Below, piece after piece: positions 1,114 through 49,935 of a stretch of DNA of 64,000 nt (positions within the stretch are counted from its first letter, which is position 1; each line of letters starts with the position of its first letter). Source of the DNA: Ignavibacteria bacterium (GTDB taxonomy: Bacteria; Bacteroidota; Ignavibacteria; Tepidaquicellales; Tepidaquicellaceae). Under the pieces are notes generated by a model, which was given only the letters and a program-made list of their open reading frames with translations, had not been told where the DNA came from and did no database searches. The translations under genes were made by a program, and so were the position numbers. The DNA lies in contig JBATSB010000010.1 in NCBI GenBank assembly GCA_049293015.1, positions 2,117-66,116 of the forward strand. The letters run 5' to 3'.

Positions 1114-1617
1114 CTTCTTATTGAATATTATTTTCTTATCAGTAATTTGCAAATATTTTTTAATACTTTAAATTATTCCAACAATTTTATGTATCGTCAA
1201 ATTTCCAAAATAGATTACTAACCTTTATTTTTACCTCATTAAATGTCTCTTATATTTTTTTTACTGAAAAAAATTTCAATTTTTTATCTGATTTTAATTA
1301 TCAGTCTATTCTGAATCAATTTCAATTTTTCATACTCGAATATTATTTCACAATACAAATTGGAGATTCAACCGAAGTAGATAATAAAAAGCAGATTAAA
1401 ATTTTATTGCTAATTAAAAACATTATAATTAATTTGAACAGAGTTTTTAGAAGCTATGATGAATATTTTCGAACTAATGATTATTTAATGTAGATATGAT
1501 TTCAAAAAAAGATTTGAAGAGATTGGCTGAATTACGATTAAAGGATTCAGCTTGTTTATTAGAAAATAAAAGATATCAGGCTGCAAAAGTATCTGTTCGT
1601 AGTTTTGAAAACAAATA

Positions 1618-1851
1618 ATGAAAAAAAATAATCAACATATTATTCCTTTAGGAAACGGATGGGCTGTAAAGAAAGAAGGAAGCAGAAAGTTTACGATCAT
1701 TACAGATTCAAAAAATACTGCAATAAAAGTCGGAAGACAGATTGCGAGGAATCAAAAATCTGAACTGATTATTCACGGAAAGGATGGAAAGATTATTGAT
1801 AAGGACAGTTATGGTAATGATCCATGTCCGCCTAAAGACAAAAATTATTAA
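1618..1851 (+). CDS. DUF2188 family small protein
   Basis: 77 aa. NGWAVKKEGS...ELIIHGKDGKI..KDSYGNDPCPPKD fits the DUF2188 pattern as I remember it. Confidence 0.7.
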   Translation: MKKNNQHIIPLGNGWAVKKEGSRKFTIITDSKNTAIKVGRQIARNQKSELIIHGKDGKIIDKDSYGNDPCPPKDKNY

Positions 1852-8181: not shown

Positions 8182-9132
8182 ATGCTGAATACCAGATCAC
8201 TAATCGTAACATTAGTTTTACTTTTCTTTTTTGCCGGAAATACTTACTCTCAAAATAATACTTATGATTTTCTTAGATTAAATGTAGGAGCACGTGCTTC
8301 TGCACTTGGGGGAAGTTTTGTCACAAATACCAATGATGTAAATGGTTTGTTCTATAATCCTGCATCTCTTTCGACAATTACGACTTCGCAGGCTTCCATA
8401 GGTTTTTATAAATATTTACTGGATATTAATTCCGGTAATCTTGCCTATGGACAGAAATTCAAAGACAAGGGTTATTTCGGAGGTACTGTAAAGTATTTTA
8501 ATTATGGCAGCTTTACTAAAAAAGACATTTCAGCAAATGATCTCGGGACTTTTAATGCAAATGACCTGGCGATTTCTTTGGGATACTCCAATGCTTTTCA
8601 GGAAAATTTTTATTACGGTGCTAACCTGAAGTTTATATATTCACAAATCGATGAATTCAATTCAACTGCAATAGCTGTAGATTTGGGTATGCTCTATATA
8701 ATTCCTTCCACTATGTGGAATTTTGGTATTAGCTTATTAAATGCCGGTACACAAATGAGTCAGTATGACAATACAAAAGAAGATCTTCCTCTCGATCTGA
8801 GAGTCGGTGTAAGTAAAAGACTCGAGCATCTGCCGGTAAGGATCAATTTTGAATTCAGTGATCTAACTCAGAGTGGTGAATCTTTTTGGGAAAATTTTAA
8901 GAACTTATCTGTCGGCGGTGAATTTGATTTTAGCGAGAACGTAAAATTCCGTATCGGATATGACAATGCTCAGAGACAGGATCTTAAGACAGGAAGTTCG
9001 ATCGGTATAGCAGGATTTTCTACAGGAATTGGATTTAATTTCCTTGAGAATTATTCTTTTGATTATGCTTTTAGTTCGATGGGAAATGTCGGAACGAATA
9101 ACAGGATAGATGTGGGATTTAAATTGAAATAA
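8182..9132 (+). CDS. porQ: T9SS outer-membrane beta-barrel, PorV/PorQ family (PorQ-like)
   Basis: 316 aa with a signal peptide. The YDFLRLNVGARASALGGSFV...NPASL N-terminal motif and the alternating beta-strand pattern ending ...DVGFKLK resemble PorQ. Five T9SS cargo genes lie in the same window. Confidence 0.55.
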   Translation: MLNTRSLIVTLVLLFFFAGNTYSQNNTYDFLRLNVGARASALGGSFVTNTNDVNGLFYNPASLSTITTSQASIGFYKYLLDINSGNLAYGQKFKDKGYFGGTVKYFNYGSFTKKDISANDLGTFNANDLAISLGYSNAFQENFYYGANLKFIYSQIDEFNSTAIAVDLGMLYIIPSTMWNFGISLLNAGTQMSQYDNTKEDLPLDLRVGVSKRLEHLPVRINFEFSDLTQSGESFWENFKNLSVGGEFDFSENVKFRIGYDNAQRQDLKTGSSIGIAGFSTGIGFNFLENYSFDYAFSSMGNVGTNNRIDVGFKLK

Positions 9133-11058: not shown

Positions 11059-11224
11059 ATCAAAATACAAATATTGTTTATAATATAGTTGAAATTAATA
11101 AAAAAATTTAATAAAAATAAACCAAATTATAATTACCTTCAAAATTTTTCATATCAGTTTTTCAATTCTGTAGTTTACAACTCTCATCCATTCTCATGAA
11201 ATTAGTAGTAAAAGAAAATCAGTT

Positions 11225-11419
11225 ATGAAAAAAATATTACTACTAACATTAATAATTCTGTTTACTTGCGTCCAAAACATTTCATCTGAAAATATTCTTT
11301 CACGGATAACTTATGACGAATGCACTTATGAAGAAATTATCTGCGATGAAAGCGGATGCACGAAATACATTTATTACTGTGACGGACGGCTTAAACAAGT
11401 AATCCCGGATTGGGATTAA
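11225..11419 (+). CDS. Small secreted Cys-rich protein (64 aa)
   Basis: A signal-like N-terminus MKKILLLTLIILFTCVQNISS is followed by 43 aa with four Cys (CTYEEIICDESGCTKYIYYC). No homologue recognised. Confidence 0.4.
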   Translation: MKKILLLTLIILFTCVQNISSENILSRITYDECTYEEIICDESGCTKYIYYCDGRLKQVIPDWD

Positions 11420-11456
11420 CCGGAAATATAGCTCCAAAAAAATTTAATATATCAAG

Positions 11457-11487
11457 AAAGGAGTAAATGATGATAAGACCACCGTAA
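11457..11487 (+). promoter_or_regulatory. Candidate leader-peptide uORF, copy 1: AAAGGAG + ATG ATG ATA AGA CCA CCG TAA (MMIRPP-stop)
   Basis: A strong SD-like AAGGAG lies 3-6 nt before tandem ATGs, and the ORF has 6 sense codons. The block is conserved at 13977-14006 with only synonymous differences. It lies 70 nt upstream of the CDS at 11558. Confidence 0.55.
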
Positions 11488-11557
11488 GAATTATTAAATA
11501 TTTTGATCAATTCAATTTTAATTAACAGTTTTAAACACTAATTTAAACTAAAAAAAA

Positions 11558-11932
11558 ATGTATAAAAAACTATTTATCCCGGCAATATTTATTATTGCAA
11601 TATTTTCTGCTCTTGTAATTAACAACAATATTTTTTCAAATACTCAATCTAATCCAGCTCCAACATTTCAAGTTACTGTTTACCAAACTGGTGGTTCTAC
11701 TATACAAGCCAATGCAGAAGTTATAGTTGAAAATTCTAATGGTAATACTGTCAAATCTGGGACCACTAATTCATCCGGAATAGTCAGTTGGAGTTGGGAT
11801 CAACCTTATGGAAATTATACTGTAAAGGCATGGTATCCAACTCGGCCACTTGATGGACAATCAGCCCAAAACACAGTAAATTACTCAGGATCAAGTATTT
11901 ATACTTCTGTTACATTAGGTCCAAATTATTAA
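11558..11932 (+). CDS. Small secreted single-domain beta-sandwich protein (CarboxypepD_reg/PEGA-like), C-terminus TLGPNY
   Basis: 124 aa with an N-terminal hydrophobic signal or anchor. The pattern ...[11 protein letters not shown]...[10 protein letters not shown] is typical of carboxypeptidase-regulatory-like folds. It is a paralogue of 14084..14452, sharing YPxxPLDGQSA and the terminal TLGPNY. Confidence 0.6.
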
Positions 11933-11944
11933 ATTTCAAATCAG

Positions 11945-11970
11945 GCAGGGAATTTTTTATTCCCTGCTTT
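11945..11970 (+). terminator. Intercistronic hairpin / possible attenuator (GCAGGGAAT-TTTTT-ATTCCCTGC + TTT)
   Basis: A 9-bp perfect stem lies 13 nt after the stop of 11558..11932 and 13 nt before the ATG of 11983. The structural counterpart is at 14463-14492. Confidence 0.55.
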
Positions 11971-11982
11971 AAAATATTTCTC

Positions 11983-13701
11983 ATGAAAAAAAAAATCTTT
12001 TTATTAATATTTATTCAATTTGTACTTGCACAAATTACCTTTACTCAAACTCCTATGTATTATCAAAATTACCCATTAGAATTAGATGGTAACAGGGAAC
12101 CGTTTCGTAAAGCAGGCATTCCGCTTATAACAGATTTAGATAAAGATGGACAAAAAGAAATAATAACATTTGCTGTAGACTATTATGAATTAATTAATCC
12201 ACCTTGTATGCTTCATATAGTAAGAAGTGATGGCTCTTCTTATCCAAACTTTCCTAAAGGATATAATGAATTAATTTTAGATATTGCTTCCGGAGATGTT
12301 AATAATGATGGTTTTTTAGATATTGCTATAAGGTTTACTCATTCCTTTGATGTTATCGATAGATTCGGAAATCATCTTTCTGGATTTCCGGTAAATTATA
12401 GTGATGGTGATATTAATCCAACGAATTTTATAAGTTTATATGATTTAGATAATGACAATAAACTTGAAATTATTGTAAATAGGGCAGGAGATATTTCAGT
12501 CTATAATTTTGATGGTACTTTGCGAAGTGGTTGGCCAAGATTAATATCCGGAAGAGCTACCTATAATCCTGCTATTGGAGATATTGATAATGATGGTTTT
12601 GCAGAAATTGTTTTAAGCTCTTTCAAATTCACAAACAACATTGTTGATTCCGGAGCTGTGCATGTCTTTAGACATAATGGTTTAGAGTTTTCAAATAATT
12701 TTCCAATATATTTTGATTCTACATATTTCTCTTGGAGTTCCTCTCCATCACTTTTTATAAATAAAAATAATTCTGATTCAACGTTTTTCCTTGTTCCTTT
12801 GGATAAAAACAGTTCATCCTCAGATAGACTTCATAAGTTTCTAAAAATAGATATAAATGGAAAAATATTAGAAAAAAAATATTATGTTGAAACAATGGAT
12901 TTTGGTACTTTGGTTATGGGAGATTTAAATATTGATGGTAAATTAGACTTTTCAACCGGATCACAATTTGGAACTTCTTTATCTGCCTTCGACAACACTC
13001 TTAAAAGAATTGAAGGTTGGCCTTCTTCAGGAAATGGTGAACATTATGCAACTTCTGTCATAGCTAAAATTTCAAATTCCAGTTCAATGAATATTATAAG
13101 TAATTCATGGTCTGCAGAGTCAGTTAGTGGAAATGGTTATATTTATGCCTACACTAGCAATGGTGTTATTTTACCATGGTCTCCATTAAGACCTTATGGA
13201 TTGGTTAAGGGTATTTCAGTTTCAGATTTAAATAATGATGGTTCTGTAGAACTAATAGCAACAGCAACACAACAAAGAAAATTTTATCTTCACGTTTGGA
13301 CTATTCCTGGAATTCAGTTTGCAAATGAGAATTTCCCCTGGCCTCAATACGGTCACGACAGATATCGTACAAATCAATACGGCTTTATTCCTCCTGATGA
13401 ACCTGTTGGAATACTCCCAATAAGCAGCAATGTACCGGATAAGTTTTCCCTCTACCAAAACTTTCCAAATCCTTTTAATCCAACTACAAATATTAAATTT
13501 GATTTAATAAATTCCGGTAACGTAACATTAAAAATTTACGATGCATTAGGAAGGGAAATTTCTACTCTTGTAAATGAAAGACTAAACATCGGGACTTATC
13601 AGATAGTATTTGACGGAAGTAATTTTACTAGCGGGATTTATTTTTATAGTCTGGAGACAGAGAGTTTTAGAGAGACAAAGAAGTTTATTTTGTTGAAGTA
13701 A
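11983..13701 (+). CDS. FG-GAP/VCBS-repeat beta-propeller protein with T9SS C-terminal sorting domain
   Basis: 572 aa with a signal peptide. Repeated Dx[DN]xDGxxE/D[IL] calcium-loop-like motifs are present ([66 protein letters not shown]). The tail reads [17 protein letters not shown] then [17 protein letters not shown]...GIYFY...KKFILLK. Confidence 0.8.
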
Positions 13702-13749
13702 AGTCCTAAAGTTTAAATATTCAGTAAATTTTATAAATGTTTTTTTAAA

Positions 13750-13808
13750 GGCGTTGGTGGATAAAGCAACCAACGCCGACTGGAATTTTGAAACACCGAC
13801 AACGGCTA
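13750..13808. repeat. Hairpin GGCGTTGGT...ACCAACGCC plus TTTTGAAACACCGACAACGGCT end-motif (long-hairpin family relative)
   Basis: Read directly. The end-motif matches 9459-9480. Confidence 0.55.
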
Positions 13809-13976
13809 AATAAGCGACAGAAATTTTTAAAAATATAAGGAATTTAACGCAAATTCAAACATTATCGCATATTTCAATAATATTTTTATATCCGGATAAC
13901 CGTCAAATCAAAAAAAGTGTCCCTAACATGAATAAATAATTTCTCCTAAATTGTATTTAACTTAAAAATAAAACAT

Positions 13977-14006
13977 AAGGAGTAAATGATGATCAGACCA
14001 CCATAA
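13977..14006 (+). promoter_or_regulatory. Candidate leader-peptide uORF, copy 2: AAGGAG + ATG ATG ATC AGA CCA CCA TAA (MMIRPP-stop)
   Basis: Same block as 11457-11487. The differences ATA>ATC and CCG>CCA are both synonymous. It lies 77 nt upstream of the ATG at 14084. Confidence 0.55.
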
Positions 14007-14083
14007 GGAAATTGAAAAAAAGTAAACAAATAAGTATTTATTTATCAATTAAAAAATTAATTTCAGAAAGGAAAAAAATCTAT

Positions 14084-14452
14084 ATGAAAAAATTCAAAGT
14101 AATAGCAGCAATAGTGTTAATTGCAGTAGCAGGATTCTTTGCAACTCAGATAATTTCATCAGATGCAAATGCAGATCCGAATCCACTTCCCCACTTTAAT
14201 ATCAAAGTATTACAATATTCCACTTCATATCCTGTGGAAAATGCTCAGGTCAAGTATTTGACAGGAGGAAATAATGTTTATACAGGTACCACTGATGCAA
14301 ATGGATGGTGTTATACAACTTTGGCAACAGGAACATATAATGTATATGTATATTACCCTGCTCAACCATTGGATGGACAGTCAGCAAATTTGCTAAATTA
14401 TAATCATGATGGAAATGATGATGAAACTTTAACCTTAGGACCAAATTATTAA
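14084..14452 (+). CDS. Small secreted beta-sandwich protein, paralogue of 11558..11932, C-terminus TLGPNY
   Basis: 122 aa from the ATG at 14084 (MKKFKVIAAIVLIAVAGFFA signal or anchor). The ORF-track start at 14012 adds 24 K/I/S-rich residues upstream of the signal peptide and overlaps the leader, so I reject it. Confidence 0.6.
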   Translation: MKKFKVIAAIVLIAVAGFFATQIISSDANADPNPLPHFNIKVLQYSTSYPVENAQVKYLTGGNNVYTGTTDANGWCYTTLATGTYNVYVYYPAQPLDGQSANLLNYNHDGNDDETLTLGPNY

Positions 14453-14505: not shown

Positions 14506-16278
14506 ATGAAAATTATATTTGTAAATATTTTTTTGTTTTGTATAATTCATTCCGGCATTTCCCAAACTCCTGTTTATAAAACCGGATTTCCGATTGTTAT
14601 TGATTCTAACAGAAGTCCTTATCAAAAAGCAGGATTGCCTTTAATTACAGATTTCGAAAAAGACGGTCAAAAAGAAATAATCTTTTTTACAATAGATTAT
14701 TTTGGAATAACAAATCCAAATTATCTGTATGTAACTAATAATGACGGATCTAATTATCCAAATTTTCCTAAAGGATATAATGAACTTATATTAGATGTCA
14801 ATTCAGGAGATGTTGACGGGGATGGATTTCTTGATATTGTTTTAAGATTTTCATTTTCATTTGATGTTATAGACAGATTTGGGAATCACCTACCTGGTTT
14901 TCCTGTGAATTATAGTGATGGAGAATTTACTCCATTAAGACCAATAAATATTTATGATCTGGATAATGATGGAAAGCTTGAAATTATAGTATCAAAAAAA
15001 GGAGAACTTTCAGTATTTAATTATAATGGAACATTAAGACAAGGCTGGCCAAGATACATACCGGGTTCTACAAAAACAAATGCAGCTATCGGCGATATTG
15101 ATAATGACGGTATTGCAGAAATTATAGCTGCTACTGTAAGAAAAATTCCCACCGGCGGATCAGATTCATCAGCTTTAAGGATTTTCAGAGAAAACGGAGA
15201 AAATTTTTCTAATGAATGGCCGGTATATTCAGATTCACTTTATGAAAATTCGGGAGCCTCCCCGACTCTGATAATTAATAGAAATTTTACGGATTCAACA
15301 TATATTTTAATGTCAACTAAAAGAACAAATATTGGCGGTATCAGTAATAACCGTCTTACAAAATTTAATATTTATGGTCAGATTATTGACAGAGGATATG
15401 CAAATGTCTTAAATGGATTAGGAACTATTGTAATTGGAGATTTGGACAGAGATGGGAAACCCGAATATTCAAATGGAGCACAAGGCGATCCATATCTATT
15501 ATTATATTCAAATGAATTAGTTAAACTTTCAGGCTGGCCAAATGAAGGAGTTGGAGAACATTGGGCTACACCTTTAATTGGAAAATTAACGCATTCCAAT
15601 AATTTGAATGTTACAGATAACAACTGGTCAGCCTTTGCACCTAACGGATTTGGAAATGTCTTTGCTTATAATAAAGACGGTTCACCTTTACCCTGGTCTC
15701 CATTAAGACCGGAGGGAATAGTAGAAGGTATTGCTTTATCAGATATTGATAATAATGGATCAGTTGAATTAATTGCAACTTCTTCTAAAGGATACGAAAC
15801 CTATATAGATAAAAATGGATCAGTTGGTTTAACAACAACTTCTTCAAAAAGAATCGCAACCTATCTTCATATTTGGTCATTGGATGGAATTCCTTTTTCA
15901 CATGAAAATTTCCCATGGTCCATGTATGGTCACGACCGCTACAGAACTAATCAATACGGATTCATACCACCCGACGAACCCGTCGGCATTCTCCCAATAA
16001 GCAACAATGTACCGGATAAGTTTTCCCTCTATCAAAACTTTCCAAATCCATTTAATCCAACTACAAATATTAAATTTGATTTGATAAATTCAGGTAATGT
16101 AAGTTTAAAAATTTACGATGCATTAGGAAGAGAAATTTCTACTCTTGTAAATGAAAGGCTAAATATCGGAACATATCAGATAGTATTTGACGGAAATAAT
16201 TTTACCAGCGGAATTTATTTTTATAGTATTGAGACAGAGAATTTCAGAGAGACGAAGAAGTTTATTTTGTTGAAGTGA
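14506..16278 (+). CDS. FG-GAP/VCBS-repeat beta-propeller protein with T9SS C-terminal sorting domain (paralogue of 11983..13701)
   Basis: 590 aa with the same repeat motifs and tail. The last ~290 nt are about 92% identical to the paralogue. It contains a 60-nt in-frame tandem duplication at 15754-15873. Confidence 0.8.
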   Translation: MKIIFVNIFLFCIIHSGISQTPVYKTGFPIVIDSNRSPYQKAGLPLITDFEKDGQKEIIFFTIDYFGITNPNYLYVTNNDGSNYPNFPKGYNELILDVNSGDVDGDGFLDIVLRFSFSFDVIDRFGNHLPGFPVNYSDGEFTPLRPINIYDLDNDGKLEIIVSKKGELSVFNYNGTLRQGWPRYIPGSTKTNAAIGDIDNDGIAEIIAATVRKIPTGGSDSSALRIFRENGENFSNEWPVYSDSLYENSGASPTLIINRNFTDSTYILMSTKRTNIGGISNNRLTKFNIYGQIIDRGYANVLNGLGTIVIGDLDRDGKPEYSNGAQGDPYLLLYSNELVKLSGWPNEGVGEHWATPLIGKLTHSNNLNVTDNNWSAFAPNGFGNVFAYNKDGSPLPWSPLRPEGIVEGIALSDIDNNGSVELIATSSKGYETYIDKNGSVGLTTTSSKRIATYLHIWSLDGIPFSHENFPWSMYGHDRYRTNQYGFIPPDEPVGILPISNNVPDKFSLYQNFPNPFNPTTNIKFDLINSGNVSLKIYDALGREISTLVNERLNIGTYQIVFDGNNFTSGIYFYSIETENFRETKKFILLK

Positions 16279-16433: not shown

Positions 16434-17720
16434 TTATCTTCCCTTCATTCTGTGAGAAACATTGATCCTGTTTTTTTTCAGATTGGCAACGATCTTATCG
16501 ACTTCAGGAATTGCATGATTAAAATATTTTTTCAAACCCCTGCAAAGATAGTTAAGTCCGGGCTCACCATCTGGCGTAAGTATGATCCTGTTCTTTGGAC
16601 ATTCACCGTAGCAATCAGTAAGGAATTCACACTTCATGCAATACTCAGGAAGATAATCAGATTTGGCAGTTCCGAATTTTGTCTGTGATTCTGAAAAAAC
16701 CATCTCAGCAAGATTATTTTCCATTACATTGCCAACCTTATATTCGGGATAAACATAATGGTCGCATGAATAAACACTTCCTTCATTTTCAACGGCAAGA
16801 CCCTTGCCGCAGAATCCGCTGTAGATGCAAACCTGAGATGGCATTCCGAGATGCTGAGCTACAAGAGTTTCTATATGGTTTACAAGAACTTTCCCAACAT
16901 CGCGGTTAAGCCATTCATCAAATACCTTTGAAAGAAAATATCCATAGTCATCAGGATCAACGGACCAATCGGTAACAATTGAATCAGGGTGATCCGGACG
17001 GGCTTCCGGAGATCCGTCTTTTGGAAGTTTTGAAACATCCCAGGTATGAGGAGCTGTTGTTTCAAAACCCTTATATTCTACGATCGGAATAAACTGAATA
17101 TAAGTCGAACCTATTTCACGTCTTAAGAATCTGTAAACATCAAGCGGACGTTTTGCATTTAAACGGTTGACACAAGTGAGTGTGTTGAATGGAACGCGGT
17201 ACTTTTTCAATAGCTTGATCCCATTCATGACAAGATCAAAAGTCGGTTTTCCGTTTTTAGTAATGCGGTAAGCATTATGTATATCGCGTGGACCATCTAT
17301 GCTGATACCGACAAGCCAGTTGTTTTCTTTAAGAAACTTACACCAGTCATCATCCAATAATATTCCATTCGTCTGAAGGTCATTTGATATTTTCTGACCG
17401 GGTTTGGAATACTTTTTCTGAAGCTCAGTTATTTTCTTAAAATAGTTCAAGCCAAGCATGGTTGGTTCTCCACCCTGCCATGAAAATACAATTTCATCAG
17501 CCGTGACGCCTTCAATATATTGACTGATAAAATTTTCAAGTACCTCATCAGTCATTTTCCCTTTTCCGGGACCATCGGGAAGATCTTCCTTGTCGAGATA
17601 GTAACAATATGTGCAGTCAATGTTGCAAGTCGAACCGCCGGGTTTTGCCATCACGTGAAATCTTCTTTGTGCCGGTTGTGTATGACTTTCTGATTGATTA
17701 TAGTTATTATCCAAATTCAT
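16434..17720 (-). CDS. Radical SAM/SPASM enzyme, anaerobic sulfatase-maturating enzyme (anSME/AslB/ChuR) family
   Basis: 428 aa. It has FHVMAKPGGSTCNIDCTYCYY (the CxxxCxxC cluster in the anSME-typical context), GGEPTM, and C-terminal Cys clusters including CMKCEFLTDCYGEC (SPASM). Confidence 0.8.
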   Translation of the reverse strand: MNLDNNYNQSESHTQPAQRRFHVMAKPGGSTCNIDCTYCYYLDKEDLPDGPGKGKMTDEVLENFISQYIEGVTADEIVFSWQGGEPTMLGLNYFKKITELQKKYSKPGQKISNDLQTNGILLDDDWCKFLKENNWLVGISIDGPRDIHNAYRITKNGKPTFDLVMNGIKLLKKYRVPFNTLTCVNRLNAKRPLDVYRFLRREIGSTYIQFIPIVEYKGFETTAPHTWDVSKLPKDGSPEARPDHPDSIVTDWSVDPDDYGYFLSKVFDEWLNRDVGKVLVNHIETLVAQHLGMPSQVCIYSGFCGKGLAVENEGSVYSCDHYVYPEYKVGNVMENNLAEMVFSESQTKFGTAKSDYLPEYCMKCEFLTDCYGECPKNRIILTPDGEPGLNYLCRGLKKYFNHAIPEVDKIVANLKKNRINVSHRMKGR

Positions 17721-18320: not shown

Positions 18321-20987
18321 TTGAAAAAATTATATTCTTTAATATTATTGATACTGTTTCTAAACACTGCTGCTTTTTCACAAAGTGAATGGTTTTTACA
18401 GTATGTCGGATCTCTGAAGTCAATAGATTTTATAAATATTAATACCGGTTGGGCTATTGGTTATCAGGGTATTGTTTTAAAAACTACAAATTCAGGAAAA
18501 AACTGGATAATTCAACCAAAAATAAATTCAGGTATGAAATCAGTTCAATTCCTGGACATGAATACCGGTATGATAGTTGGAATCAATACTAATGATAGTT
18601 TAATCTTAAAAACAACAAACGGGGGTATTAACTGGATTCCTCAATCAATTGAAAATAATAAAAATATAAGCGCTATTCATTTTACAGATTCTAATAATTG
18701 GTGGGCAACAATTGGAGATACAATTGTTAAAACTACTAATGGCGGAACCAACTGGATTAATATGCCATACGAAATGAATAACAGCAATTTCAAATCTGTT
18801 TTTTTTATAGATCAAAATACCGGTTGGATAGGGGGAGATAAATTCGATGATATAATACCCGAACCAATTATTCTCAAAACAACGAACGGAGGAACTAACT
18901 GGATTTATATTTATCCCTTCTATAGTGGTGTAGCAATAACTTATTTATATTTTACTGATATTAATACCGGATATGCTTTAGACTTCTATGGTTCGATTAC
19001 TAAATCAACTAACGGTGGAATCGGATGGGATTTTGGTATTAATTCGGATTTATTGGATGGAGAAATCCAATTTATAAACAACAATACGGGTTGGCTGACT
19101 AGTGAATATAGTTCATCAAACGGGAGCTCAATATTAAAAACAACAAACGGCGGAGCAAATTGGTCGTATTTAAATAACACTCCGGCAAGTAGATCTGCTT
19201 GTTTTGTTGATAGCTCATACGCCTGGATAGTAGACACTCAAGGCTATATTTACAGTACCTATAATAAAATGGATTCAAATGACGTAGGAGTGTTTAACAT
19301 TATAAATCCTATTGAGAATTCTGTTCATTATGCAAAATGTACAAATAATGATTCCATTATTCCTAATGTTTCAATAAAGAATTTTGGGCAAAAAGCTCAG
19401 AACAATTTCTTTGATGTTCATTTTGAAATAAAATTTGGTAACAATATTGTTTATCACAGCATTAAACAAGCTACTATTGATGCTTGGGAAACCAAAACAA
19501 TTAATTTCGATCCTTACATTTTAAATTTTGATTTGCAAGCATATAATAATGAAAAGTATAAAATTAATTCTTGGACAAGTTTGGTTACCGATACAAATCC
19601 TCTAAATGATACAGCAGAGTCAGCTTTTTCCGTTGTCAATCCTAATTACGCTTATTCAGATATAAGCGGATATTATTTCTTAAACTCTTCAATAAACGCA
19701 AATTGCATTCCGGATCAGCCTGTATACAATTGGGAAGATACTACAGGCAGTACAAGTCTTATTGTTAACGGACAGGCAGTTGTTCCATTCGCATATTACA
19801 ATAGTTATTACTTTAATGGATGCTTTAGATTGCCGGATGCTTTAACCGGAGGTGATAAATTTAAATTTTTTGGAACCTGCTATGATACAATATTAATTTC
19901 AACCAGCGGGGTAATAGGTTTTGGCGGTATCTCATTAGTTGAAATGAGTTATCCATTTTCTTCGTCAATACCATCTGTTACTGCTCCTCACCCTGCAATT
20001 TTCCCATTTTGGTATTTTACTAATTTCCAGGATCCGGAAATAATAGGCAGGAATTTGAAATACAAAGTCACTGATGACAAATTTATTGTTACCTATGACA
20101 GATTTCCATTATTTAATACACTTTATGATTCCAATGATTATGTTTCATATCAGGTAATTTTAGAAACAGGAATTGACGGCGGCACTGAAAACGGAAATAT
20201 TACTGTTCAGTTTGATAATTCAAAAAGCGGTTCGTTATTCCTGAACAATTATTACAATGGAAATTTACATGAAATGACAATCGGCATACAAAACTCAACA
20301 GGAACAAAGGGTCTTCTTTACAGACGTTCTGAAGCAAATCACGTTGTTACAGTTCCCGGACCGCTGTTCGGTTCTCCCCTTGCAATAAGATTCGGACAAA
20401 TTAATGAACTTCTGCCTGTCGAACTTGAATCTTTTATATCTACTGTATCTGAGAATAATGTAATACTTAACTGGCGTGTAACTTCGGAAATTAATAATTC
20501 CGGATTTGATCTCGAACGGTCAAATGTTAAAGATCAGACGTCAGACTCATGGATAAAAATCGGCAACGTTGCAGGAAATGGTAACTCAAACAGTCCTGTA
20601 AGTTATACCTTTGAAGATAAGAATCTTACTTCCGGAAAATATAAATACCGGCTCAAGCAGATAGATTTTAACGGAAGCTTTGAATACTATGATTTGCAGA
20701 ATGAAGTTATAATAGGTATCCCGGGTAAATATAATCTTTCACAAAACTATCCGAATCCGTTTAATCCTTTAACTAAAATAAAATTTGAGATCCCGGTAGA
20801 TTCTAAGGTAGTATTAAAAATTTATGACAATACCGGCAGGGAGATGAAAACTCTTGTGAATGAATTTAAAACTGCCGGATATTACTCTTTTGATTTTAAC
20901 GGGACCAATCTCGCCAGCGGAGTTTATTTTTATAAATTACATACTGACGGATTCTCTGATACTAAGAGAATGATCTTACTTAAATAA
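18321..20987 (+). CDS. Large T9SS-secreted protein: N-terminal BNR/Ycf48-like beta-propeller repeats, central unknown region, VELxSF spacer, T9SS sorting domain
   Basis: 888 aa with a signal peptide. (L)KTTNGG(T/I/A)NW repeats recur about every 45-60 aa. The C-terminal ~190 aa are homologous to 3..1019 (LLPVELESF...NNSGFDLERS...SQNYPNPFNPLTKI...GVYFY). TTG start preceded by GAGGGA. Confidence 0.8.
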   Translation: MKKLYSLILLILFLNTAAFSQSEWFLQYVGSLKSIDFININTGWAIGYQGIVLKTTNSGKNWIIQPKINSGMKSVQFLDMNTGMIVGINTNDSLILKTTNGGINWIPQSIENNKNISAIHFTDSNNWWATIGDTIVKTTNGGTNWINMPYEMNNSNFKSVFFIDQNTGWIGGDKFDDIIPEPIILKTTNGGTNWIYIYPFYSGVAITYLYFTDINTGYALDFYGSITKSTNGGIGWDFGINSDLLDGEIQFINNNTGWLTSEYSSSNGSSILKTTNGGANWSYLNNTPASRSACFVDSSYAWIVDTQGYIYSTYNKMDSNDVGVFNIINPIENSVHYAKCTNNDSIIPNVSIKNFGQKAQNNFFDVHFEIKFGNNIVYHSIKQATIDAWETKTINFDPYILNFDLQAYNNEKYKINSWTSLVTDTNPLNDTAESAFSVVNPNYAYSDISGYYFLNSSINANCIPDQPVYNWEDTTGSTSLIVNGQAVVPFAYYNSYYFNGCFRLPDALTGGDKFKFFGTCYDTILISTSGVIGFGGISLVEMSYPFSSSIPSVTAPHPAIFPFWYFTNFQDPEIIGRNLKYKVTDDKFIVTYDRFPLFNTLYDSNDYVSYQVILETGIDGGTENGNITVQFDNSKSGSLFLNNYYNGNLHEMTIGIQNSTGTKGLLYRRSEANHVVTVPGPLFGSPLAIRFGQINELLPVELESFISTVSENNVILNWRVTSEINNSGFDLERSNVKDQTSDSWIKIGNVAGNGNSNSPVSYTFEDKNLTSGKYKYRLKQIDFNGSFEYYDLQNEVIIGIPGKYNLSQNYPNPFNPLTKIKFEIPVDSKVVLKIYDNTGREMKTLVNEFKTAGYYSFDFNGTNLASGVYFYKLHTDGFSDTKRMILLK

Positions 20988-31911: not shown

Positions 31912-32187
31912 TTAATTTTGATTTCGCTTTTTATCGGCAACCATAAATTCTTGATTATGAGCCATTTCAAAAAGAAATTCAGGGGAAAAATCAGCACCGT
32001 TTTCCCAGTATATTGTAAAGGGATTCAGTTTGAAATTTCTGAAATATTCTTTGTCTTTAAGTGGTTCAAATATTTCACCCCATATTTCTTCTTTGAGATC
32101 TATGACTTGACTAAAACCGGTATTGAATTCTATATCAATTTTATATTCATCAAGATACTCGGCATTTGTGATGTGTATGTTTTCCAA
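31912..32187 (-). CDS. DUF2442 domain protein
   Basis: 91 aa. Size, pairing with DUF4160 and the ...L.IEF..G....IDL... pattern fit. TTG start. Confidence 0.6.
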   Translation of the reverse strand: MENIHITNAEYLDEYKIDIEFNTGFSQVIDLKEEIWGEIFEPLKDKEYFRNFKLNPFTIYWENGADFSPEFLFEMAHNQEFMVADKKRNQN

Positions 32188-32208
32188 AATATTTATTTTT
32201 ATTCTATT

Positions 32209-32466
32209 TTATTCTAAAGGTTTAATCTTTTTTAATTTTTTCTTTTCAACTGACTGATTCCAATTAAATGATATTTCTCTGATATTTTTCTCTATCCATT
32301 CCTTAACAAGACTTTGAACTTTCATTGGCAGCTTTCCAATTACCTTGCCTGATTTAATTTCAATTTTAGCTTTATATCCCTGATACTCAACATGAATGTG
32401 CGGAGGATTATGATCCTTATAAAACATATAAATTGTTATCCCATAAAATCTTGAAATCTCAGGCAT
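32209..32466 (-). CDS. DUF4160 domain protein
   Basis: MPEISRFYGITIYMFYKDHNPPHIHVEYQGYKA is the DUF4160 signature. I prefer the ATG at 32466 because it is preceded by GAGGAG; the ORF track starts 6 codons earlier. Confidence 0.75.
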   Translation of the reverse strand: MPEISRFYGITIYMFYKDHNPPHIHVEYQGYKAKIEIKSGKVIGKLPMKVQSLVKEWIEKNIREISFNWNQSVEKKKLKKIKPLE

Positions 32467-32574
32467 TTTCTCCTCTTTAACCATTTGAACCTAACAATTT
32501 TTTTAAAGAATCAAAATACCTTTTTTTACCTCTTTAATTTTTTTTTCAATTATTCTGCTCTGTATCTTTAATTC

Positions 32575-48864: not shown

Positions 48865-49935
48865 ATGAAAATTATTATAAATTTATTTATTCTGCTTCTA
48901 GTAAGTACCGGTCTGTATTCACAAAACGCATCGACTTACTTTCCGGCAAATACCGGTTATAAATGGTTTTATAAAAATACTCCTCTCGACTCTTTAAGTA
49001 ATCCAAATTATAACTTATCGACATATCAGGTCGATTCATTCGCAACCAATGTGAATTATAACGGACTGCCTGCATCACTGGTTTTATCACAATCGGGTCT
49101 GACAAATATTAATCAACAGGGATTGTTTACAGATTCAGTTTTTTATAATTTTCAGTCAACCAATGGTTTCTATTTTCTTAATCCTTTAAGTTTTATTAAT
49201 TCTATTCCTGTTTTTGATTCAGTTGCGTTTATTCAGTTTCTCAGATCGTTTGAAGGATGGTATAGTTATTACAGATTTGCGCAGACTGTAAATGTTCCTT
49301 ATACACTTTTCTCAAGAGATACAACTGTAACATTTGATTCTCTTACACTTCCGCTCAGAGTTTCTGCTACAGGAAGGAGACTTAATGATCAGACTATTTC
49401 AACTGTCAACGGAAATTATAATTGCAAAAAGTTTTTAATCACTTTTGGAATTAGTTATGGACTTCTTCCACCGCTTATTTATATTCCGATTGTCAGCATA
49501 CCCGATACAGTTTATATTGCTCAAAATGTCTGGATTGTAAAAGATATCATTCCATCTATTAGTGTTGATTTAAATACAATTGGGATTGATCTGGCATTTA
49601 CTATTCCGGGCAGTTTAAAAGAGCTTACTCAAAATACTATAGGTATATCCGGTCAAAATATTTTTAATCCGGAAAGTTTTTCTCTTGGTCAGAATTATCC
49701 AAATCCCTTTAATCCAAACACAGTTATCAATTACAATATTGTTAAATCAGATTTTATTTCTCTGAAAGTTTTTGACATACTCGGTAATGAAGTTGCTGTT
49801 CTTGTAAATGAAAAACAAAATGCGGGAAGTTATTCAGTGGAATTTGATGGAGCAAGTCTGCCTAGCGGGGTTTATTATTACAGACTCAGTTCAGGTGATT
49901 TTAATGATGTGAAAATGATGACGCTGATAAAATAA
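48865..49935 (+). CDS. T9SS-secreted protein of unknown function
   Basis: 356 aa with a signal peptide. The C-terminus reads LGQNYPNPFNPNTVINY...GVYYYRL...KMMTLIK. Confidence 0.75.
   Translation: MKIIINLFILLLVSTGLYSQNASTYFPANTGYKWFYKNTPLDSLSNPNYNLSTYQVDSFATNVNYNGLPASLVLSQSGLTNINQQGLFTDSVFYNFQSTNGFYFLNPLSFINSIPVFDSVAFIQFLRSFEGWYSYYRFAQTVNVPYTLFSRDTTVTFDSLTLPLRVSATGRRLNDQTISTVNGNYNCKKFLITFGISYGLLPPLIYIPIVSIPDTVYIAQNVWIVKDIIPSISVDLNTIGIDLAFTIPGSLKELTQNTIGISGQNIFNPESFSLGQNYPNPFNPNTVINYNIVKSDFISLKVFDILGNEVAVLVNEKQNAGSYSVEFDGASLPSGVYYYRLSSGDFNDVKMMTLIK

Follow-up and report, generated by a model that had tools for sequence, protein, structure and literature searches.

A conserved five-codon leader ORF with a strong Shine-Dalgarno sequence precedes secreted-protein cassettes in an Ignavibacteria lineage

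We analyzed a 64,000-nt stretch of contig JBATSB010000010.1 from an Ignavibacteria bacterium (the window) and describe an ultra-short open reading frame (ORF), five codons long and led by a strong Shine-Dalgarno (SD) sequence, that stands ahead of each of two secreted-protein gene cassettes. Judged by comparison of its sequences, this mini-ORF appears to be a cis element specific to one family of multi-copy cassettes, in a single Ignavibacteria lineage in which ordinary genes are SD-less, and the same element occurs in cassettes of several Ignavibacteria metagenome-assembled genomes (MAGs) and in metagenomes. The reading that we favor, tentatively and with less than even confidence, is that the element is a translated ribosome-parking leader ORF whose Arg-x-Pro-stop ending would slow termination, and that it acts through ribosome occupancy and not as an RNA switch.

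The mini-ORF block and its two copies

The block and its parts are as follows, all on the forward strand.

11457-11487: block copy 1, AAAGGAGTAAATGATGATAAGACCACCGTAA
11455-11463: SD of mini-ORF copy 1, AGAAAGGAG, 6 nt 5' of the conserved ATG
11467-11469: extra in-frame ATG 5' of the copy 1 start, 3 nt from the SD
11470-11487: mini-ORF copy 1, ATG ATA AGA CCA CCG TAA (Met-Ile-Arg-Pro-Pro-stop)
13976-14006: block copy 2, TAAGGAGTAAATGATGATCAGACCACCATAA
13977-13982: SD of mini-ORF copy 2, AAGGAG
13986-13988: extra ATG 5' of the copy 2 start
13989-14006: mini-ORF copy 2, ATG ATC AGA CCA CCA TAA (Met-Ile-Arg-Pro-Pro-stop)

The original prediction, made from the letters of the sequence, had described an island of identity at 11457-11487 that recurs at 13977-14006. 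Both copies are present, and the second begins one base earlier, at 13976. By pairwise alignment the 31-nt blocks are identical at 28/31 positions (90%), compared with 42% upstream and 59% downstream in the flanks of the two leaders, and a 28-nt degenerate pattern allowing up to three mismatches matched these two sites alone in the window and found 0 matches in 100 dinucleotide-preserving shuffles of it; the island of identity is therefore borne out. The paralogous small genes located 3' of the blocks share 57% nucleotide identity, and thus the block is better conserved than the coding sequence behind it. Inside the ORF, the copies differ by ATA/ATC and by CCG/CCA, both of them synonymous third-position changes. 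These comparisons indicate that the block is an element under selection, not a relic of duplication.

The uORF (upstream ORF) had been read as six codons, MMIRPP, starting at the first of two ATGs. Relatives share the second ATG only, and the first lies just 3 nt from the SD; we consequently place the conserved start at the second ATG (11470 in copy 1; 13989 in copy 2), which gives a mini-ORF of five codons. The first ATG of copy 1 (11467-11469) is probably not used.

Conservation of the mini-ORF among relatives

Relatives were reached independently of the motif, via the small protein encoded behind it, by a protein search, contig look-ups and a scan of species-representative genomes. Further loci came from a DNA-pattern scan of metagenomes with AAGGAG-N5-11-ATGATHAGAYCAMYNTAR, which returned 26 loci; loci carry our own numbers (L001 and so on). 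The SD and mini-ORF recur ahead of secreted-protein genes in related genomes. The metagenome scan added cassettes at L031, L033-L035, L037, L039 and L044, while L025, L028 and L043 are Ignavibacteria-like loci with other secreted proteins downstream, for which no Pfam match was found. All conservation counts below rest on 22 unique versions of the mini-ORF, which encode the following peptides.

MIRPP-stop: both window copies, L025, L028, L031, L033 and L043
MIRSP-stop: L002/L004, L010, the L011-L014 and L034-L039 group, and L047-L049 (TGA stop)
MIRSL-stop: L009 and L044
MIRST-stop: L015 and L016
MIRPL-stop: L007
MSRSP-stop: a third copy in L011 and L012, with Ser replacing Ile at position 2
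Stop codon TAG changed to TAT, a population variant that extends the ORF to 22 codons: L001 and L005

The SD is near-optimal, reads (AGA)AAGGAG(G) and lies 5-9 nt 5' of the ATG, across a spacer of variable sequence. Every version has the ATG, the AT of codon 2 (apart from the Ser copy), the AGA of codon 3 and the CA of codon 4. Codon 2 is ATA, ATT or ATC, all Ile, in 21/22 versions; codon 4 is CCA or TCA; and codon 5 varies at all three positions, encoding Pro, Leu or Thr. At codon 6 stands a stop (TAA, TAG or TGA) in every version except the TAT (Tyr) population variant, and never a Pro codon. Column entropy is 0-0.3 bits at most ORF positions, versus 1.0-1.9 bits in the flanks. The SD-ATG spacing thus varies within the optimal range while the length is fixed and the stops are interchangeable, which argues for a translated ORF over a nucleic-acid motif and agrees with the predicted anatomy of an SD-led ORF.

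At the level of the peptide, 22/22 versions have Arg3, 22/22 have Ser or Pro at position 4, and 17/22 have Pro at position 5. The endings divide into RPP-stop (8 versions), RSP-stop (8, and one more with its stop mutated to TAT), RSL-stop (2), RST-stop (2) and RPL-stop (1). A preserved peptide had been proposed, with Pro-Pro-stop as its functional core. The first proposal holds for the Ile codon, for the frame and for the length, but not for residues 4 and 5, which change non-synonymously, nor for the single Ser at position 2; the second fails, because RPP-stop accounts for 8 of the 22 versions and four other endings occur.

Several apparent variants were set aside. At the edge of L007, ATGCTGATGATCAAGTAA resembled a uORF variant, and L050 shows it to be the C-terminus (...RMLMIK-stop) of a preceding gene with a sorting tail for the type IX secretion system (T9SS). 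The 22-codon ORF of L001 looked frameshifted but is not; the protein is the same as in L002 and L004, which have TAG where L001 and L005 have TAT, and the long ORF is therefore a point variant of the stop codon. Pattern matches at L019 and L024 (eukaryote-like or without ORFs), at L022 and L027 (antisense inside a gene at 60% GC) and at L036 (inside an ORF) were judged to be chance and excluded from the evidence.

The leaders offer no RNA switch

Between each mini-ORF and its cassette lies a spacer on the forward strand.

11488-11557: spacer of copy 1, 70 nt, A/T-rich, unstructured, fold z-score +1.64
14007-14083: spacer of copy 2, 77 nt, A/T-rich, unstructured, fold z-score +0.99

In most cassettes the main ATG lies 68-70 nt behind the stop of the mini-ORF; the distance is 77 nt in window copy 2, and in L001, L002 and L009 it rises to 93-94 nt. 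Despite this near-constant length, the spacer sequence is barely alignable across cassettes. No significant fold was found in five leaders compared with shuffles (z = +1.64 and +0.99 in the window; +0.11, -0.25 and +1.71 in three relatives), and for the copy 1 spacer 195/200 shuffles fold at least as well. Neither 11488-11557 nor 14007-14083 contains a terminator-like site. An Rfam search found no cis-regulatory match, either at gathering thresholds over the whole window (two tRNAs only) or at E<=1 over 11200-14200. Being A/T-rich and, by eye, C-poor, the spacer shows no obvious Rho loading site, and sigma-70-type promoter-like sites are in no excess over shuffles (16 vs 17.2). Without a fold, a terminator or an Rfam match, neither terminator/antiterminator switching nor the unmasking of a sequestered start has a substrate, and on the evidence of the five leaders we rejected models of attenuation or of a masked ribosome binding site (RBS). 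A stalling leader peptide had been predicted to control the gene 70 nt downstream: its conserved SD-led ORF stands, with 17/22 versions ending in Pro, whereas the switch that stalling would operate (z -0.25 to +1.7) and the Pro-Pro core do not.

Two further mechanisms were considered and dropped. Some mini-ORFs contain GAUCACCU, which could mimic the 16S 3' tail and pair with the SD; the pairing amounts to 3-4 bp and a bulge, it is absent from the window copies, and the Pro or Ser-Pro codons account for the sequence, so the mimic was dismissed. Short-range reinitiation was also rejected, as published distances are about 10 nt, not 68-70 nt (PMC4833913).

L043 (761-1000, reverse strand) is the only locus with attenuator-like features. 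Its mini-ORF SD, GAGGCAG, can pair with CUGCCUC about 90 nt downstream, and CUGCCUC stands directly 5' of a 16-bp hairpin followed by a U-run, an intrinsic terminator.

Host lineage and SD usage

The original prediction took the host for a member of the Bacteroidota. The 124-aa small protein of cassette 1 is 100% identical to WAT71_00660 (NCBI), a protein of an Ignavibacteria bacterium MAG, and all genomic relatives are Ignavibacteria MAGs; consequently, we assign the lineage to the Ignavibacteriota, the sister of the Bacteroidota within the FCB (Fibrobacteres-Chlorobi-Bacteroidetes) group and not the Bacteroidota itself.

The predicted scarcity of SDs among the genes of the window is confirmed. 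A core GGAG, GAGG or AGGA at -20 to -4 precedes 4/43 ORFs of at least 100 aa (a 5-mer, 1/43), and since 8% of all 17-nt windows contain such a core, 4/43 is the background frequency. Across the window, an intergenic AAGGAG or AGGAGG is followed at SD distance by a start codon at the two mini-ORFs and nowhere else. Among the very few genes that do carry an SD is, as had been noted, the one with GAGGAG ahead of its start at 32466.

32209-32466, reverse strand: DUF4160 gene with a GAGGAG SD, start at 32466

It belongs to a DUF4160 and DUF2442 gene pair (31912-32484, reverse strand) that may have been horizontally acquired.

For the class Ignavibacteria, a published survey lists the anti-SD CCUCCUUU, the SD consensus AAAGGAGG and 32% SD-bearing mRNAs (PMC10783764 Table 1). 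Given this anti-SD, ribosomes of the class should be able to read the SD of the mini-ORF. The copy 1 SD (AGAAAGGAG) agrees with the class consensus at 7/8 bases, and mini-ORF SDs reach AGAAAGGAGG, which includes the full consensus that pairs with the anti-SD. Judged by the genes of the window, SD usage in this lineage is lower still than in its class. The window holds no 16S gene, and no bS21-like motif was found in its six-frame translation.

A further SD with ATG ATC AGA behind it occurs at 49374-49396 (forward strand; AAGGAGACTTAATGATCAGACTA), within the T9SS-tail gene at 48865-49935 but in another frame. It opens a 17-codon ORF that has its first nine bases in common with the mini-ORF, and is probably a chance occurrence.

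How the element may act

In the ribosome-parking reading, the strong SD would capture a ribosome on the leader. The ribosome would translate five codons that mostly end in Arg-x-Pro-stop, a context of slow peptidyl transfer or termination, and would dwell there. Its occupancy could shield the A/U-rich leader from nucleases, hand ribosomes to the SD-less start about 70 nt downstream, or both, making the mini-ORF a positive expression element rather than an on/off attenuator. That the effect would come from occupancy itself is suggested by the lack of any alternative RNA structure behind the mini-ORF. In R-x-P-P arrest motifs the Arg is described as irreplaceable and the reported x residues are Gly, Ala, Ser and Pro (PMC12992588); by analogy, the invariant Arg3, the Ser or Pro at position 4 and the Pro at position 5 (17/22) fit the register of R-x-P in the arrest core, with a stop codon in place of the A-site Pro.

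Several observations weigh against this reading. The third positions of codons 3 and 4 (AGA, YCA) never vary, which may reflect codon bias in a 33% GC genome or may reflect a constraint at the RNA level. The mini-ORF is missing from four cassette lineages: from L008, the closest orthologue (81% identity), where the SD is kept; from L017, which retains the SD, has lost the ATG and shows a deletion of about 10 nt; from L046, whose main gene has its own GGGAG; and from L007a/L050, where the cassette follows 63 nt behind the previous T9SS gene. The motif is thus incompletely conserved at orthologous loci, which, like the non-synonymous variation among its versions, counts in part against the original prediction. 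The mini-ORF of copy 1, like those of several relatives, has a small gene 27-35 nt ahead of it and may there be intercistronic rather than 5'-terminal. In L028 and L043 it sits 6-12 nt 3' of a T9SS gene and 181-201 nt 5' of the next gene, and in L043 a strong intrinsic terminator (z = -3.3) intervenes; given this spacing and this terminator, the partner gene is not always clear. A distance of 68-70 nt is far for a hand-over of ribosomes, compared with the roughly 10 nt of a published reinitiation proposal (PMC4833913). Finally, Leu or Thr at position 5 in 5/22 versions weakens the termination-pause component. The SDs that outlast the ORF in L008 and L017 fit ribosome capture as a part of the function.

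Alternative explanations

Four other explanations compete for the same observations. The mini-ORF could be a conditional arrest peptide, where a stall on Pro-Pro-stop or Arg-x-Pro-stop reports the status of elongation factor P (EF-P), prolyl-tRNA or release factors and regulates the secreted-protein genes. The strong SD would ensure that the ORF is translated, 8/22 versions end in RPP-stop and 17/22 in Pro-stop, and the invariant Arg with only Ser or Pro at residue 4 matches the R-x-P part of RxPP cores (PMC12992588). However, RSL-stop, RST-stop and RPL-stop occur in intact cassettes, so Pro-Pro is not conserved; the use of TAA, TAG or TGA implies no release-factor specificity; a chain of five residues is too short for the exit-tunnel constriction; and a stalled ribosome would find no hairpin, terminator or masked start to remodel, nor an obvious Rho loading site in a spacer that is C-poor by eye. 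We consider this explanation rather unlikely. The SD alone could instead be functional, binding 30S subunits or ribosomes and protecting the mRNA as does the Bacillus stabilizer STAB-SD, with the mini-ORF dispensable or tuning. This would explain why (G)AAAGGAGG stands 68-94 nt upstream of a start that it cannot serve, and why L008 and L017 retain the SD after losing the ATG; the core of the cryIIIA STAB-SD is GAAAGGAGG. Many SDs also have -10-like A/T hexamers 8-20 nt on their 5' side (by eye, TATAAT in L031 and TATAAA in the L011 group), yet such hexamers are expected by chance in 33% GC DNA, and the promoter scan equals its shuffles. A bare SD would have no need of the ATG, the Ile and Arg codons, the ORF length and the stop position, all held far tighter than the flanks, and we regard the explanation as unlikely.

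An extended SD might also be read only by ribosomes with an exposed anti-SD (for example, those without bS21), coupling the cassettes to ribosome composition. The genes of the window are SD-less although the class anti-SD is CCUCCUUU, the rare strong SDs are concentrated in the cassette (including that of a 69-74-aa upstream gene in L001, L009, L031, L013 and L014), and there is a precedent in Bacteroidia (PMC9976891, PMC13000453). Anti-SD sequestration has, however, been shown in Bacteroidia only, and a class with 32% SD-bearing mRNAs is not SD-blind in general (PMC10783764), which leaves this coupling quite improbable. Least probable, in our estimate, is an untranslated site, such as a DNA operator, a promoter element or a binding site for a protein or small RNA, whose resemblance to an ORF is incidental. 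The element is short, and the invariant third positions of codons 3 and 4 would suit such a site. Against it, an SD-ATG spacing that varies from 5 to 9 nt across an unconserved spacer is what initiation typically shows and would be unusual in a bipartite binding site; three different stops occupy the same position; and the Ile codon changes only synonymously in 21/22 versions.

Cassette genes and their neighborhood

Each copy of the block precedes two genes, and the 64-aa ORF ahead of copy 1 stops 35 nt 5' of its SD. All are on the forward strand.

11225-11419: 64-aa small secreted-protein ORF
11558-11932: cassette 1, gene A, CarboxypepD_reg-like secreted protein of 124 aa (Pfam PF13620, a weak match at 1.7e-05)
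11983-13701: cassette 1, gene B, protein of 572 aa with FG-GAP repeats and, at its C-terminus, a T9SS sorting domain (Pfam FG-GAP_3, 5.5e-17; Por_Secre_tail, 2.1e-11)
14084-14452: cassette 2, gene A, small-protein paralogue of 122 aa, start taken at the ATG and not at the upstream TTG at 14012
14506-16278: cassette 2, gene B, FG-GAP protein of 590 aa, likewise with a C-terminal T9SS sorting domain (Pfam)

The cassette thus runs from a small secreted protein through the mini-ORF to a CarboxypepD_reg-like protein of about 124 aa and an FG-GAP T9SS cargo protein of about 570 aa. The predicted position ahead of a secreted-protein operon is upheld for both copies and recurs in related genomes. The 64-aa ORF has no Pfam match; homologous small genes, recognized by eye from a common C-terminal pattern, lie 27-35 nt 5' of the mini-ORF in L001, L009, L010, L015, L016, L025 and L031. 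In L001 (5600-5838), L009, L031, L013 and L014, although not in the window, a small upstream gene (69-74 aa) has a strong SD of its own (AAAGGAGGAACAATG, ACAGGAGGAAAAAATG), and the cassette seems to collect the rare SDs of the Ignavibacteria lineage genomes. In the gap of about 580 nt between the tandem cassettes of L011 (5140-5720) we observed an apparent decayed C-terminus of this small gene directly 5' of the second mini-ORF; the mini-ORF would therefore have outlived its upstream neighbor there.

The last 300 nt or so of the two FG-GAP genes (13400-13701 vs 15980-16278), including the sorting domain, are 91% identical, compared with 50-75% nucleotide identity elsewhere; the pattern suggests that the tail has undergone gene conversion or is very strongly constrained. 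A pair of hairpins, neither with a clear U-tail, lies nearby: one at 11400-11418 (TAATCCCGGATTGGGATTA), overlapping the 64-aa ORF's stop codon, and one at 13748-13775 (GGCGTTGGTGGATAAAGCAACCAACGCC), 47 nt 3' of the first cassette and about 200 nt 5' of mini-ORF copy 2. A radical SAM/SPASM gene (16434-17720, reverse strand) follows immediately 3' of cassette 2. Also near the cassettes are a gene for a PorV/FadL-like outer-membrane protein (8182-9132, forward strand) and two further proteins with T9SS sorting tails (18321-20987 and 48865-49935, both forward strand).

Occurrence outside Ignavibacteria

A human-gut element of similar layout is found in ten contigs (L020, L021, L023, L029, L030, L032, L038 and L040-L042; for example, L021:2357-2387, reverse strand), where TATAAT, 8 nt, AAAGGAG and 7 nt are followed by ATG ATT AGA CCA CCG TAA (MIRPP-stop). 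This mini-ORF lies 57 nt 5' of an RNA-polymerase-like gene with its own SD (488 aa, RNA polymerase Rpb1 domain 2), and its other neighbor reads by eye like a dCMP deaminase gene. The same element is carried by a 190-kb viral contig (L045:2145-2175), the only match in the viral collection; the gut-contig region had no megablast match in a phage database. The gut element may be due to chance or convergence. On L026, a phage-like contig with 44% GC, an intergenic AAGGAGG-N8-ATGATAAGACCACCATAA (1616-1648, reverse strand; MIRPP-stop) lies behind a terminator-like hairpin and 245 nt 5' of a 199-aa gene with a weak helix-turn-helix match; an ORF on the contig reads by eye like DNA polymerase I. Although the pattern permits eight residue pairs, 4/6 matches outside Ignavibacteria are Pro-Pro, an excess that we regard as suggestive, with small numbers and base composition as a confounder.

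What the element may represent

FCB-group bacteria largely disregard SD sequences. To our knowledge, the strong SDs that remain in their genomes have an explained role in one case, rpsU in Flavobacteriales. In the present lineage, itself SD-poor, the rare strong SDs cluster on a five-codon ORF and a small neighboring gene ahead of repeated secreted-protein cassettes. Literature searches on uORFs and SDs in Bacteroidetes yielded no description of this element, and the string MIRPP retrieved only papers on enamel peptides and microRNAs. As originally predicted, no described leader with this sequence was found in the literature, and no Rfam family corresponds to it; we therefore class it as an element of the translated leader mini-ORF kind.

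A broader proposal, which we consider unlikely, is that the mini-ORF is the first of a new class of ultra-short, SD-dependent ribosome-parking leaders (Arg-x-Pro-stop) in SD-poor FCB bacteria, which would couple T9SS cassettes to the state of the translation machinery without an RNA switch, with the gut phage (the L021 group and L045) and L026 elements being convergent. If so, that state would be the availability of ribosomes with an exposed anti-SD, or the capacity for termination or EF-P function. The element offers a test object in which the SD, the ATG, Arg3, Pro5 and the ORF length can each be mutated. It bears on whether an Arg-x-Pro ending acts at a stop codon in a chain too short for contact with the exit tunnel, and on whether a leader ORF can control a gene 70 nt away without an RNA switch. 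Should its effect be no more than positive, a phylum that is poorly tractable would still gain a compact expression element.

Comparison with known systems

The mini-ORF is most like leader-peptide and ribosome-stall elements, yet it lacks features that define membership in the established families. RAPP/RxPP arrest peptides (ApdA, ApdP and ApcA; SecM with RAGP) are, like the mini-ORF, encoded by uORFs ahead of genes for exported proteins. Their core is a C-terminal Arg-x-Pro-Pro in which x is mainly Ala or Gly, with Ser or Pro partly active (PMC12992588). In the mini-ORF, an invariant Arg stands two residues before the Pro that would occupy the P site, and the middle residue is Ser or Pro, both among the reported x residues (PMC12992588). 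The mini-ORF differs in having a stop codon in place of the A-site Pro, so that any pause would occur at termination; in the replacement of its P-site Pro by Leu or Thr in 5/22 versions; in its length of five residues, with Met-Ile before the Arg and no N-terminal targeting or tunnel-contacting segment; and in having no RBS-masking hairpin behind it (five leaders, z -0.25 to +1.71).

Attenuator leaders of the trpL and ermCL types depart further: the mini-ORF leaders have no terminator/antiterminator or RBS-sequestering hairpins, the mini-ORF contains, in place of a regulatory codon run, just one Arg codon and one or two for Pro, and the genes 3' of it encode secreted proteins, not biosynthesis or resistance. 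TnaC, a peptide of 24 residues that ends in Arg-Pro-stop, needs tryptophan and acts by blocking Rho; more generally, a C-terminal Pro before the stop can lead to pausing and SsrA tagging. The mini-ORF likewise ends in Pro (often Pro-Pro or Ser-Pro) right before its stop, with an Arg nearby, but unlike TnaC it lacks a ligand-sensing chain, and its spacer shows no obvious C-rich Rho site.

STAB-SDs are 5' mRNA stabilizers of Bacillus (cryIIIA), and ermC mRNA is stabilized in a stall-dependent manner. As in a STAB-SD, the SD of the mini-ORF (AGAAAGGAG(G), against the class anti-SD CCUCCUUU) lies far upstream of the main start, by 68-94 nt plus the 18-nt ORF. In contrast to cryIIIA, most versions of the element conserve a start at 5-9 nt together with a five-codon ORF of fixed length, while L008 and L017 have an SD and no ATG; the host belongs to the FCB group; and the element can follow an upstream gene instead of a 5' end.

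The extended SD of rpsU in Flavobacteriales is preferred by ribosomes lacking bS21 (PMC9976891, PMC13000453). It resembles the SD of the mini-ORF as a rare, strong and extended SD in an SD-poor FCB-group genome, whereas the mini-ORF SD drives a five-codon ORF and not a ribosomal protein gene. SD-led minigenes, such as the lambda bar minigene AUG-AUA-stop and the pentapeptide minigenes, cause toxicity by peptidyl-tRNA drop-off or confer macrolide resistance, and we know of none that serves as a conserved leader of secreted-protein operons. In form they come close to the mini-ORF: both are very short and have a strong SD and an AUG AUA start, and five codons is the length of a pentapeptide minigene.

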